Source: an uncultured Eubacteriales bacterium
Lineage (GTDB): Bacteria > Acidobacteriota > Aminicenantia > Aminicenantales > Aminicenantaceae
Length of the DNA: 64,000 nt
Assembly (NCBI GenBank): GCA_964505785.1
Contig: CAZDJZ010000011.1
Location: 5,568 to 69,567, forward strand
Direction: 5' to 3'
The notes below the pieces were generated by a model that did no database searches, was not told the DNA's origin, and saw only the letters and a list, made by a program, of their open reading frames with translations. Of the stretch, positions 25,394-57,609 are shown piece after piece (positions within the stretch are counted from its first letter, which is position 1; every line of letters begins with the position of its first letter). The position numbers and the translations under genes were made by a program.

Positions 25394-26521
25394 ATGACAA
25401 AATTTCAGCCTTTTACCATGGAACGGATGATGTCCAAGTATGAAAAGGATGTTGACTATAATATTTCAGAAAGCGGTGTGCACCCTATCACATTAGGGGA
25501 TTTGATTGAGAACAATCCTGACTTGACTGAAAAGCTGATGGCCACGGAAATAAACTACGCTCATGCCAATGGTATCCCTGAACTGAGAGAATATATAGCG
25601 GCCTTGTACCGGGGTGCTTCCGCCGGTAATGTCCTGGTGACGATCGGTGCGATTGAAGCCAATTACAACACTCTGAATACTCTGCTCTCTCCCGGAGATG
25701 AAATCGTTATAATGCTGCCGAATTACATGCAGATCTGGGGAATCGCCAAAAACCAGAACCTGAATGTCAAAGCTTTTCATTTACGCGAAAAAAACGGCTG
25801 GGCTCCCGACCTCGATGAATTAGAGGACACGGTCACAAATGAAACTAAATTGATCGCTGTATGCAATCCGGATAATCCCACCGGCTATATTTTCACCGAA
25901 CAGGAAATGGAACGTATTATCAAAATCGCCGAAAGGGCCGGCGCCTGGATTCTGGCTGATGAGGTTTATACAGGCGCCGAACGCACGACAGATAAGCAGA
26001 CTCCCTCTTTTTACGGACGCTATGATAAAGTTGTGGCGACGGGAAGCCTTAGTAAAGCATACGGTCTGCCGGGCCTCAGAATCGGCTGGGCTATCGCTCA
26101 GAATGAGGTTATAGATGATATATGGAAAAGGCATGAATATACCACCTTGAGCGCGACTATGCTGTCCAACCATCTCGCCGCCATCGCCCTTTCACCCGAA
26201 GTAAGACCGCGTTTGATTAAACGTACCCGTGAATACATCCGGAAAGGGTTTCCAGTTTTGGAACAATGGATGAACAGCCATGAAAACACATTCAGTTTTA
26301 CTCCTCCACAGGCTGCGGCTATCGCTTTCGTCCGCTATCACTTGGATATTAATTCTACTGAATTCGCAGAACGTTTAATCAAAGAAAAGAGTGTGCTTTT
26401 GGTCCCGGGCGACCATTTCGGCATGGATAAATTTCTCCGTATCAGTTTCGGTCTGCCTCATGATTATCTAACCGCTGCACTCGAGCGCATTCACGAATGG
26501 ATTACGGAAATTCAGGCATAA
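25394..26521 (+). CDS. class I/II PLP-dependent aminotransferase (substrate unknown)
   Basis: 375 aa. SLSKAYGLPGLRIGW carries the PLP-lysine motif. Paralogous to 55725-56825. Confidence 0.85.
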   Translation: MTKFQPFTMERMMSKYEKDVDYNISESGVHPITLGDLIENNPDLTEKLMATEINYAHANGIPELREYIAALYRGASAGNVLVTIGAIEANYNTLNTLLSPGDEIVIMLPNYMQIWGIAKNQNLNVKAFHLREKNGWAPDLDELEDTVTNETKLIAVCNPDNPTGYIFTEQEMERIIKIAERAGAWILADEVYTGAERTTDKQTPSFYGRYDKVVATGSLSKAYGLPGLRIGWAIAQNEVIDDIWKRHEYTTLSATMLSNHLAAIALSPEVRPRLIKRTREYIRKGFPVLEQWMNSHENTFSFTPPQAAAIAFVRYHLDINSTEFAERLIKEKSVLLVPGDHFGMDKFLRISFGLPHDYLTAALERIHEWITEIQA

Positions 26522-26560
26522 TACGCATCATCAAGGCTTTCATGCATAATGCGCAATGGA

Positions 26561-27022
26561 TTATTTTCTTTTGATTTCGAGCTCATCTTTGCCATAGTTT
26601 CTTTCACAATAATGACACTTAAATTCCACAGGCTCTTTTCTTGCAAGTTTGAAAAATGTTTCCACTTCCTCTATATTTGTGATACAGGCAGGGTTGGAAC
26701 ATCCAATGATTCCAACTAATTTTTGGGGAAGTTTGACCTTGATTTTTTCTTTTATTTTATAATTCCTTATAATACTGACAGTGGCATTAGGAGCGAGAAT
26801 AGCGATTCGATTCACTTCGCTCTTTGTTATAAAACGATTATCAAATTTGATCACCCCTTTTTTGCCCATTACTTTGCTGTCTAAATTTAATGTTACACTG
26901 ATCGGCTGCTGAAATTCCTGCGGATCCAAAATCCGGATGATCCTGAATGTTTCACGGCTGGGTATATGGTCAATAACCGTGCCGTCTTTGATAGCAGGAA
27001 CTTTTCTTTCTTTTTCTTCCAT
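26561..27022 (-). CDS. pyrI: aspartate carbamoyltransferase regulatory subunit
   Basis: IKDGTVIDHIP N-terminal domain and Cys4 zinc site CSNPACIT...CHYCE. Confidence 0.95.
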   Translation of the reverse strand: MEEKERKVPAIKDGTVIDHIPSRETFRIIRILDPQEFQQPISVTLNLDSKVMGKKGVIKFDNRFITKSEVNRIAILAPNATVSIIRNYKIKEKIKVKLPQKLVGIIGCSNPACITNIEEVETFFKLARKEPVEFKCHYCERNYGKDELEIKRK

Positions 27023-27061
27023 ATCATATCACCTTTTTCTCAAATTGATTCCATCATATAC

Positions 27062-27188
27062 AACCTGACTTATTATTCGAAAATCGATTTTTCATGGCAA
27101 TGGATAAGGGTCATCCGACTGCGAAATGCTTTTCAGATTTGAGATGTTATACCGCATCTGCGGCAATCCCGGTCCATGAATAATCCAG
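27062..27188. mobile_element. candidate MITE-like unit bounded by inverted family-A ends, inserted between pyrB and pyrI
   Basis: The left end aacctgacttattattcgaaaatcgattt (27062-27090) and the right end tctgcggcaatcccggtccatgaataatccag (27157-27188) are inverted family-A copies. Internally it carries a cagatttgagat (family D) word. No target-site duplication is evident. Confidence 0.4.
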
Positions 27189-27198
27189 AATAAAAAGA

Positions 27199-28128
<930 letters not shown>

Positions 28129-28351
28129 TTATCATAATTTATCATTATTCAAACCCATTTAAAGTCGAAATGTCAACTTTGGTTTTATCCGACCCGATGG
28201 AATTACAATGATTACAGAATTTTACATACTTCCGTCACAAAGCTGCAACATGAAGGAAAAAAAACTCCGTACAATCCCTTGTTGTCCCGAAGTTTTATTT
28301 ATGCTATAAGCTAAAAGAAAATGCGATACCACATTCCAAAGGAGTGCGAAT

Positions 28352-29746
28352 ATGCAAGAATTTTATGTTAATCTCAGCCAATGGATAGACAGCACGGCAC
28401 AATTCATTTGGTCGTATATGATTTATATCCTGTTTGCAGTTGGCGCCTGGTTGACTGTTCGAACCGGGCTTATTCAATTCAGGCATCTCGGCAAAGGCAT
28501 GAAACTGATTTTCAGCGGTTTCATGGGAAGACCTGCAGGTAAGAAGCGGGACGGAGATGTTTCCCCGTTCGCGGCGTTATCTACGGCTTTGGCCGCCACG
28601 GTCGGCAACGGCAATATCGCTGGAGTTGCCACCGCTTTATTCACCGGAGGTCCGGGAGCAATCTTTTGGATGTGGGTCTGCGGTTTTGTCGGCATGGCTA
28701 CCAAATATTCCGAGGCTTTGCTTGGAGTTCATTACCGGGAAAAATTTCCCGACGGCACCATTGCCGGCGGACCGATGTATTACATAAAGAACGGCTTTAA
28801 AGGCAAAAAATGGGCCAAGATCCTGGCGGCTTCTTTTGCCGTATTCGGTGCCTTCGCCGCTCTTTTCGGTACCGGAAATATGATGCAGGCCAATCAAATG
28901 GCACTGGCTTTTAACAGTGAGTTTGGAATTCCGAATGTGGTCACCGGAATCACCATTACTTTGCTGGTCAGCCTTGTGATCATCGGCGGAATCAAACGTA
29001 TCGGCAAAGTGGCGGAAAAACTTGTTCCTACAATGGTCCTTATTTATTTTGCCTTCGGGTTCGCTGTTATTTTTTCTAACATCGGCGATGTTCCCAGAGT
29101 GTTCCTTCTGATTTTTCAAGAAGCTTTTTCTCCATCTGCGGCAGTGGGAGGATTCATGGGGGCAACGGTTAAAAGCGCCATCCAGATGGGATTCAGACGC
29201 GGCTTGCTCACCAATGAAGCCGGTCTGGGAAGCGCTCCCATCGCGCATGCAGCCGCTCAGACCCCGTCACCAATCCATCAGGGACTCATCGGCGTAGGCG
29301 AAGTTTTTATCGATACGATTGTCGTGTGCACCATAACCGCATTGATCAATCTTTCCTCCGGCATGTGGCAAAGCGGACTGGACGGGGCGGCCATGACCGC
29401 AGCCTCTTTCTCAGACACGGTGCCGATTGTGGGAGGCCTGGTTGTGGCGATTTCATCCTTTCTGTTTGGATACTCAACACTCCTGGGCTGGTATTATTAC
29501 GGTGAACAGTGTATGAAATATCTCTTCGGCGTCAAGATCACCTATCCTTACCGGTTGATCTATGTGGTCCTGGTTTTTGTCGGATCGCTGATTTCCATTG
29601 AACTGGTTTTCTACATCGGAGATATTGCTAATGCCTTTATGGCGTTTCCCAACTTGATCGCCTTGGCCCTGTTAAGCGGGACAGTCGCAACAATGACCCG
29701 GCAGTTCTTTAAAAAATACAAGCGGCTGGAAGACTTTGACGCTTGA
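28352..29746 (+). CDS. alanine/glycine:cation symporter (AGCS family)
   Basis: 464 aa, polytopic. SPFAALSTALAATVGNGNIAGVATA and GLLTNEAGLGSAPIAHAAA segments are typical of the AGCS family. Confidence 0.9.
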   Translation: MQEFYVNLSQWIDSTAQFIWSYMIYILFAVGAWLTVRTGLIQFRHLGKGMKLIFSGFMGRPAGKKRDGDVSPFAALSTALAATVGNGNIAGVATALFTGGPGAIFWMWVCGFVGMATKYSEALLGVHYREKFPDGTIAGGPMYYIKNGFKGKKWAKILAASFAVFGAFAALFGTGNMMQANQMALAFNSEFGIPNVVTGITITLLVSLVIIGGIKRIGKVAEKLVPTMVLIYFAFGFAVIFSNIGDVPRVFLLIFQEAFSPSAAVGGFMGATVKSAIQMGFRRGLLTNEAGLGSAPIAHAAAQTPSPIHQGLIGVGEVFIDTIVVCTITALINLSSGMWQSGLDGAAMTAASFSDTVPIVGGLVVAISSFLFGYSTLLGWYYYGEQCMKYLFGVKITYPYRLIYVVLVFVGSLISIELVFYIGDIANAFMAFPNLIALALLSGTVATMTRQFFKKYKRLEDFDA

Positions 29747-33941: not shown

Positions 33942-34021
33942 CACTCTTTACTCTTCACCAATTCAATATTTATAAATGTATCTAAGTGCTTTTTTTTCAT
34001 AAGGTTAACAGGCCTCGCTTC

Positions 34022-34063
34022 AGATTTGAGATTTGAGATTTGAGTTTTGAGTTTTGAGATCAG
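34022..34063. repeat. 7-nt tandem tract (AGATTTG x3, AGTTTTG x2, AGATCAG)
   Basis: agatttgagatttgagatttgagttttgagttttgagatcag. Its last unit overlaps the thiF stop codon (34060-34062). Confidence 0.9.
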
Positions 34064-51768: not shown

Positions 51769-51917
51769 AACCTGGATTGTTCATGGGCCGAGATTGCCGC
51801 AGATACGGTTAGATCCGGCCCTCCTGAAAATGATTTATGTGTATACTACACCCGGAACAATGAAAATGAATCCATCTTCCGTCCTGGCGGGTCATTTTCC
51901 AAGTAATAACCCAGGTT
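51769..51917. mobile_element. candidate MITE-like unit bounded by inverted family-A ends, in the peroxiredoxin 5' leader
   Basis: The left end is aacctggattgttcatgggccgagattgccgcaga (51769-51803). The right end gtcctggcgggtcattttccaagtaataacccaggtt (51881-51917) reverse-complements to aacctgggttattacttgg.... Confidence 0.45.
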
Positions 51918-56992: not shown

Positions 56993-57609
56993 ACCTGAAT
57001 TATTCACAAGCCGAGATTGCGGCAAATGCGAGGCGCAGAGATTTCAAAAAATAATCCTCGAAATAAAACAGATTGAACAATGAGGAAATGAGGAGTATGA
57101 ATAGAAATAGATGGACATATACAGCCCTGGTCTGGTTTTTTTTGAAGTCACAGGGGATTGATTATATGATACTTTATAGACGGTGAAAATGAATCCACAT
57201 GCTAAATACTACCTAACCTGGATTATTCACGGGCCGAGATTGCCGCAGACGACGGCAATACGTTAATTTATTGTCGTTCTGAGGAGCATAGCGACAAAGG
57301 ATCTTAGACGGCGCTTGCACGAGAAGACGATGACGCTTCATTCAGCGAAAAAGTCTAAGATCCTCACGGCCTGCCGGCGCAGGCCTCAGGACGACATTGA
57401 TTCAATCAAGGTCGTCACTTCACTGCGACGAGCTGCAAACCGGAAGATGCGGTGAGATTCGGCTCGCCCGAAGGGGTGAAAAATTGCGGTTATAATTTAA
57501 GGAGGCAAATGAAAAACTTTCAATTTGAACTTTTAATTAAAATCATGTTAATCGCTGATAAAAAAGTTTTTGCAAAAACATCGCAATTTTTTTATGAATA
57601 ATTCAGGCT
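56993..57609. mobile_element. composite repeat region bounded by inverted family-A copies (56993 + / 57579 -), with a nested family-A copy (57215 +) and a full family-B hairpin (57273-57395)
   Basis: The left end is acctgaattattcacaagccgagattgcggcaaa. The inner copy is aacctggattattcacgggccgagattgccgcagac. The right end is catcgcaatttttttatgaataattcaggct. No ORF of 60 aa or more is present. Confidence 0.4.
57273..57395. repeat. family-B long-hairpin element (best copy)
   Basis: Outer stem GTCGTTCTGAGG / CCTCAGGACGAC (11 of 12 bp plus one G-U). Inner stem AGGATCTTAGAC / GTCTAAGATCCT (12 of 12 bp). Confidence 0.8.

Follow-up and report, generated by a model that had tools for sequence, protein, structure and literature searches.

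We examined a window of 64,000 nt, the whole stretch of DNA that was analysed, and within it the junction between two genes encoding the chains of an aspartate carbamoyltransferase (ATCase).

27199-28113, minus strand: pyrB, ATCase catalytic chain, 304 aa (Pfam OTCace_N and OTCace; NCBIfam TIGR00670)
27023-27198, minus strand: pyrB-pyrI spacer, 176 nt
26561-27022, minus strand: pyrI, ATCase regulatory chain, 153 aa (Pfam PyrI and PyrI_C; NCBIfam TIGR00240)

The catalytic-chain gene is followed on the same strand by the gene for a regulatory chain with its Zn domain, the arrangement of a pyrBI-type pair, and the two genes form a unit with plus-strand genes on both sides. PyrB scores 374.8 bits against TIGR00670 (curated cut-off 237) and PyrI 164 bits against TIGR00240 (cut-off 148.6). 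The pyrI frame is uninterrupted and retains the four Zn-site cysteines (C108, C113, C136 and C139); compared with the sister species its dN is 0.094 and its dS 1.21 (dN/dS about 0.08), and pyrB has the same dN (0.097). Both genes are intact and under purifying selection.

A second locus, outside the window, is a canonical pyrR-pyrB-pyrC operon (genome contig C15, 63250-66822), followed by an RNase III-like gene, rnc (assigned by eye). Its pyrB is 34% identical to that of the window. Among 41 relatives only 8 have pyrI, and the pyrBI pair is missing from one species of the same genus. The presence of the C15 operon and the restricted distribution of pyrI identify pyrBI as an accessory second ATCase. 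An Rfam scan of the window returned three tRNAs only, with no match in the spacer; the assembly contains no 16S rRNA.

The spacer carries a mosaic MITE, composed as follows.

27064-27189, no strand assigned: 126-bp mosaic MITE; termini match the family, bounds taken from cross-junction alignment
27060-27063: target duplication copy on the pyrI side, ACAA on the plus strand, TTGT on the coding strand
27190-27193: target duplication copy on the pyrB side, ATAA on the plus strand, TTAT on the coding strand
27064-27083, plus strand: left terminus of a variant type, CCTGACTTATTATTCGAAAA; the same variant occurs at C1:104876 and C6:105687
27093-27114, plus strand: module B, CATGGCAATGGATAAGGGTCAT; 20 genome copies with up to 3 mismatches
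27121-27145, plus strand: module C, GCGAAATGCTTTTCAGATTTGAGAT, which includes the word cagatttgagat (27134-27145); 11 copies with up to 4 mismatches
27151-27189, plus strand: family-A right end, ACCGCATCTGCGGCAATCCCGGTCCATGAATAATCCAGA, with a small hairpin, CGCATCTGCG (blastn)

An independent assembly, Logan contig L016 of SRR7048220, gives the same 176-nt spacer letter for letter. The family plus orientation of this copy coincides with the plus strand of the window, so that the element is antisense to pyrBI. The inserted block begins with CCTG and ends with CCAG(A); together with the 4-bp duplication it added 130 bp. Its right end matches the rest of the genome by blastn with E values down to 3e-8: the segment ACCGCATCTGCGGCAATCCCGGTCCATGAATAATCCAG (27151-27188, plus strand) has dozens of blastn matches in the 3.13-Mb genome, a 36-mer core of the right end has 78 matches genome-wide (up to 6 mismatches), and the right end is 97% identical to a copy in the related genome G001. 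The left end, which reads CCTGACTTATTATTCGAAAATCGATTTTTCATGGCAATGGATAAGG from 27064, has a 33-nt blastn match of 91% to C1:104901-104933. Each end of the pyrBI copy, CCTGACTTATTATTCG and TGAATAATCCAGA, matches the family ends; they match one another at only about 10 of 16 positions.

The internal modules also recur. Module B is elsewhere enclosed by A-type termini (C6:16527-16690). It is also seen within a larger repeat of about 250 nt or more (…CATATAAAAACCGTTTCCACATGGCAATGGATAAGGGCCATATCCCGCCGCC…) with no long ORF, at C2:233387, C1:161455, C3:137168 and about ten further sites, whose reverse strand reads TTGCCA-17-TATGAA. The module-B neighborhood was considered as a repeated gene and rejected, the reading frame being short and broken, which leaves another non-coding repeat. 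Elsewhere tandem TTGAGAT units usually come after module C (GCGATATGCTTTTCAGATTTGAGAT), and a conserved stretch of about 60 nt comes before it, as at C8:104480, C17:25963, C23, C24:11639 and others, including window positions 34019-34063. Module C is a separate repeat family, of which the pyrBI element has only a fragment.

The earlier note on this DNA had described a 176-nt spacer holding a 127-bp element (27062-27188) with inverted family-A ends and the internal word now placed in the third module, C. The spacer length holds on measurement, as do the word and the inverted ends; the two ends belong to the genome-wide family. The element with its family ends likewise stands, with bounds corrected to 27064-27189 and length to 126 bp; its pyrI-facing end, said to lie 40 nt before the ATG, is indeed close to the start, at 41 nt.

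Best copies of the family were aligned to give a 253-bp non-coding element with consensus termini CCTGRATTATTCA at the start and TGAATAATYCAGG at the end, and terminal inverted repeats of 13-14 bp. With up to one mismatch allowed, the 13-nt terminus has 233 matches in the 3.13-Mb genome, against 2 in the reversed genome used as control. Of 12 aligned 253-bp copies, 11 have identical 4-bp flanks (YTAR) at their two ends, and YTAR adjoins 131 of the 233 ends (CTAA 46, TTAG 37, TTAA 35, CTAG 13). The TTAT found at pyrBI is a minor recurrent flank (5/233), as is ATAA (4/233). Paired copies range from 79 to 471 bp with a mode at 253 bp, deletion derivatives and mosaics included. By the measure of a crude gene set (2377 ORFs), termini lie inside genes in only 9 of 228 cases, although genes cover 86% of the genome. 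The ends that face gene starts number 125 and those that face stops 94, with distance distributions that are alike; enrichment near gene starts was rejected as promoter evidence, the 125:94 ratio being that expected from longer divergent gaps. The elements tend to insert right after genes, because YTAR targets often coincide in part with a TAA or TAG stop. Eleven of the 94 stop-facing ends abut the stop codon exactly, for example at window positions 57215-57250 and 51769-51809.

The 33-nt end motif has 92, 91 and 67 copies in the three species of the genus (67 in the sister species) and 137 in one other genus; in several others it is rare, and 16 genomes from other families of the order lack it. 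The MITE family is confined to this bacterial family. In this assembly and that of the sister species, many contigs start or end in an A-type element (C27:18, C44:23, C19:186, C9:409 and many G002 contigs), so that the family is a main cause of breaks in assembly. The G002 pyrB is split between contigs C288 and C198, 113 nt upstream of pyrI.

The pyrBI copy shows the features that define a MITE: it is small and non-coding, with terminal inverted repeats, a target duplication, many copies of its family and an orthologous site free of the element. Its coding strand has no ORF of at least 40 aa. It lacks the long internal hairpin of the 253-bp members, and the mosaic has no full-length twin in this genome or among 61 genomes of the bacterial family; only its 38-42-nt A end recurs. 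The two copies of its target duplication (TTAT/TTGT) agree at 3 of 4 positions and are not YTAR. Because of this imperfect duplication, the change of the terminal G to A and the lack of a full-length twin, the copy is evidently old.

The pyrB-pyrI junction was surveyed in 20 related loci. Wherever both genes are seen (17 of 20 junctions), pyrB precedes pyrI, with spacers of -5, -4, -4, 1, 1, 1, 5 (four loci), 7, 16, 24, 53, 58 and 88 nt; one genus has a gap of 1321 nt with an aldo/keto reductase gene inside. This reductase (372 aa, PF00248) occupies L005:191-1309 (G022 C20) and leaves 191 nt before pyrI. The sister species, which groups with this genome with support of 100/99, has the 16-nt junction, TGA-ACAAAGGATGCAATGA-ATG. 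Removal of the element and one 4-bp flank from the window sequence restores a 46-nt spacer, TCTTTTTATATATGATGGAATCAATTTGAGAAAAAGGTGATATGAT, which aligns end to end with the pyrI-proximal spacers of four relatives (L033, L005, L035 and L030). The part of this spacer next to pyrI is given here.

27023-27059, minus strand: pre-existing pyrI-proximal spacer, homologous to the L033, L005, L035 and L030 spacers

The deletion yields TCTTTTTATATATGATGG…, and the match is contiguous across the junction, TTTTTATATATGATGG against TTTTTATATATTATGG in L033, L005 and L035, with an alignment score of 20 compared with 10.1 ± 1.8 for shuffles (maximum 17). The 16 nt of the sister species match only the last part of the reconstructed spacer; its junction is not a clean empty site, about 30 nt of ancestral spacer having also been lost. 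Apart from the sister species (82-83%), no closer relative with more than 78% PyrI identity was found in metagenome and genome collections.

That the spacer is no insertion, and represents instead an ancestral, conserved regulatory leader of pyrI or an assembly artefact, is scarcely credible. Upstream of pyrI there are indeed conserved spacers of 53-88 nt in relatives; here, though, conservation is confined to the 46 nt that flank the element, the 126-bp block is in none of the 20 related junctions and has no full-length match in 61 genomes of the family, and the independent Logan assembly is identical. The insertion into a two-gene unit is proven, with base-resolved boundaries. It is lineage-specific, as shown by the colinear 46-nt flanks and by the sister species, which has 67 copies of the end motif yet a 16-nt junction.

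These comparisons also bear on what the earlier note had said of the junction. Its proposal of an insertion into an operon is borne out by the MITE termini, by flanks that rejoin to 46 nt colinear with relatives and by the 16-nt sister junction. Comparison with relatives, which it had suggested, supplied element-free spacers that gave the exact bounds and the TTAT/TTGT duplication, and the same long spacer, which it had named as the sign of a different origin, did not appear in any of the 20 junctions. Two further ideas go too far as put: that adjacent, coupled genes were uncoupled by the element, since the gap before insertion was already 46 nt with its own AGGTGA; and that tight coupling is the norm, since in relatives the spacer can be 53, 58 or 88 nt and in one the reductase gene lies between. 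The cistrons neither overlap nor abut, as translational coupling would have them do, being separated by 176 nt now and by 46 nt before the insertion.

The event may be pictured as the arrival of a non-autonomous MITE in an already existing 46-nt pyrB-pyrI spacer, at a TTAT that lay in A/T-rich sequence 41 nt upstream of the pyrI start, after the split from the sister species. The element carries no transposase and so must have been moved in trans by a DDE-type enzyme. A 4-bp duplication at YTAR is a signature of the IS5 group, and since the family duplicates such targets (131 of 233 flanks) the transposase was probably IS5-group-like, an assignment drawn solely from the target duplication. The family resembles the IS5 group in its 4-bp YTAR-preferring duplication, its 13-14 bp terminal inverted repeats and its intergenic copies; it differs in that no transposase gene flanked by CCTGRATTATTCA termini was found, and in that the pyrBI copy used TTAT.

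No DDE_Tnp_1 transposase gene with matching inverted repeats on either side turned up in this genome or three relatives, and pairs of termini 600-3000 bp apart enclose ordinary genes and no autonomous element. The only DDE_Tnp_1 gene found in the assembly lies outside the window at a contig end (C11:90622-91434, open frame of 539 aa); it was rejected as the autonomous partner, its flanks having no MITE termini. Seven transposase loci in two related genomes (G001 and G008) likewise have no MITE termini, and the transposase search of G002 gave no match. A missing autonomous partner is weak evidence, because metagenome assemblies often miss multi-copy insertion sequences.

The reading that we favor, with moderate assurance, is that the MITE entered a pre-existing spacer and is now tolerated there as a co-transcribed, near-neutral passenger. 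Both co-transcription and near-neutrality are inferences from the following features, beginning with the ribosome-binding site.

27029-27034, minus strand: pyrI Shine-Dalgarno sequence AGGTGA, 6 nt before the ATG and outside the element

This AGGTGA is unpaired in the minimum-free-energy fold, and (A/G)GGTGA is conserved in relatives; pyrI would be translated from this untouched Shine-Dalgarno of its own. The element would be read through as part of a pyrB-pyrI transcript, because the coding strand lacks a terminator: a search of the minus strand from 26500 to 28400 for a G+C-rich hairpin with a T run found no terminator-like site, and the hairpin CGCAGATGCG, followed by TATAACATC, does not have the form of an intrinsic terminator or attenuator. 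The spacer RNA folds no more stably than shuffles (z = -0.76; 45 of 200 shuffles fold as well). Tolerance of the insertion is supported by the intact pyrI, the kept Shine-Dalgarno, the lack of a terminator, the ordinary fold, the variable junction and the accessory standing of the pair, and the net effect on ATCase would be small.

Placement of the family bears on strict neutrality. Among 40 copies in gaps between co-directional genes, 27 are antisense and 13 sense (binomial p = 0.04), the A-end side facing the stop of the upstream gene 27 times and the start of the downstream gene 13 times. This is a weak hint of strand-specific constraints, and since the pyrBI copy is in the majority orientation it could speak against strict neutrality.

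The transcribed element might instead act as RNA, with an end-joining stem or the small CGCAGAUGCG hairpin after the pyrB stop serving as a nuclease processing site or 3' stabiliser, so that pyrB and pyrI would have unequal half-lives, as with Correia, ERIC and REP elements. We consider this improbable. The minimum-free-energy fold does contain a long-range imperfect helix between the element ends, with a 12-nt arm pair that is 92% complementary, the orientation bias sets the A end beside the upstream stop just as at pyrBI, and there is precedent in the cutting of Correia terminal repeats by RNase III and in RNase E effects of ERIC (PMC10969869). Against these stand a fold that nearly a quarter of shuffles equal, terminal repeats of the pyrBI copy that agree at so few positions, the missing internal hairpin of the 253-bp members and the weakness of the bias at its p value of 0.04.

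One feature of the element does speak against its being a mere passenger, a sigma70-like motif that points at pyrI and is better than chance.

27072-27100, minus strand: predicted sigma70-like motif facing pyrI, TTGCCA-17 nt-AATAAT, 10/12 matches

Module B supplies its -35 hexamer and the left terminus its -10, which is the AATAAT of the pyrI-facing end where the earlier note had suggested a promoter or processing site. Among dinucleotide shuffles of the element, only 1.4% reach at least 10/12 on the coding strand (at least 9/12: 11.8%), and the genome encodes 16 sigma70-family factors, which also supports its bacterial status. The element may form an outward promoter with a start at about 27065, which would make pyrI partly independent of pyrB and shift the subunit ratio; we hold this to be possible, if unlikely. 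A consensus match is not evidence of function; the promoter consensus of the host phylum is uncharacterised; the whole 1.9-kb region has 4 promoter matches compared with 4.5 in shuffles; and the canonical termini of the family lack a suitably spaced -35, so that the motif is a one-off of the mosaic and not a property of the family.

Relatives give this promoter a possible history. In L005, L033 and L035 a promoter-like motif (TTGAAG or GTGAAA, 16-17 nt, TATATT; L033:1440-1467, L005:1440-1467, L035:1439-1467) ends 33 nt before the pyrI ATG, and it persists where the reductase gene parts pyrB from pyrI, which suggests a putative pyrI promoter in the clade with long spacers. The MITE lies directly 5' of the homologous hexamer, here TATATG. 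The promoter of the element may therefore replace an ancestral pyrI-proximal promoter split by the insertion, with the difficulty that in the pre-insertion sequence of this lineage a -35 cannot be recognised and the -10 homologue has G as its last base. The full sequence of events, in which the insertion split the ancestral promoter-like tract and the chimeric module-B/terminus promoter took over, pyrI then being transcribed independently of pyrB, is in our judgment unlikely.

A passenger inside an operon, as favored here, has a close precedent. Chunjie, a MITE from Geobacter uraniireducens Rf4 (Chen et al. 2008), has one copy inside an operon; the title of the 2008 report has the operon structure undisturbed, whereas the review that summarises it has one of two phosphate uptake operons disrupted (PMC10969869). 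Chunjie is the closest precedent for the pyrBI insertion. Both are small and non-coding with terminal inverted repeats and direct repeats, and both families have dozens of full and partial intergenic copies of variable size. They differ in sequence, host phylum and target; co-transcription was shown for Chunjie and at pyrBI is only inferred; and the pyrBI copy is an old mosaic derivative, not a recently active full-length copy.

Other well-studied repeats share some features. The REP/BIME sequences of enterobacteria are, like the present repeats, intergenic and modular, with modules (here A, B and C) in varied orders; they are often inside operons and can stabilise upstream mRNA. REP sequences have no terminal inverted repeats or target duplication, whereas the pyrBI element has both and is absent from the junction of relatives. 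In Correia elements (CREE/NEMIS, Neisseria) the terminal repeats are 26 bp, the duplication is TA and there is an IHF site. Correia elements resemble the present family as abundant MITEs of about 100-160 bp between co-transcribed genes; the family differs in its 4-bp duplication and its terminal repeats of 13-14 bp and is not of the Correia type. The ends of Correia elements can contain promoter parts, and their RNA undergoes processing (PMC10969869). As functional analogues for promoter or RNA-processing effects one may name Correia, ERIC and REP elements, whose defining features are lacking at pyrBI. Among the papers available for search, none linked Aminicenantes with MITEs.

The insertion is of an ordinary kind and is no challenge to what is known of bacterial MITEs. 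It is a clean case, resolved to the base, in which a MITE has become fixed within a pair of genes for one enzyme; the host lineage is uncultured and poorly known, and modular repeats crowd its intergenic DNA. The sites at which the family inserts are A/T-rich and YTAR-like, with stop codons and operon spacers among them. In this clade the pyrB-pyrI junction is flexible in evolution, and the two ATCase subunit genes need not be tightly coupled. If the promoter-like motif is active, the locus would offer a modest natural instance of subunit stoichiometry re-wired by a mobile element; and if the promoter replacement is true, transcription of the regulatory subunit of an accessory ATCase would start from mobile-element DNA.
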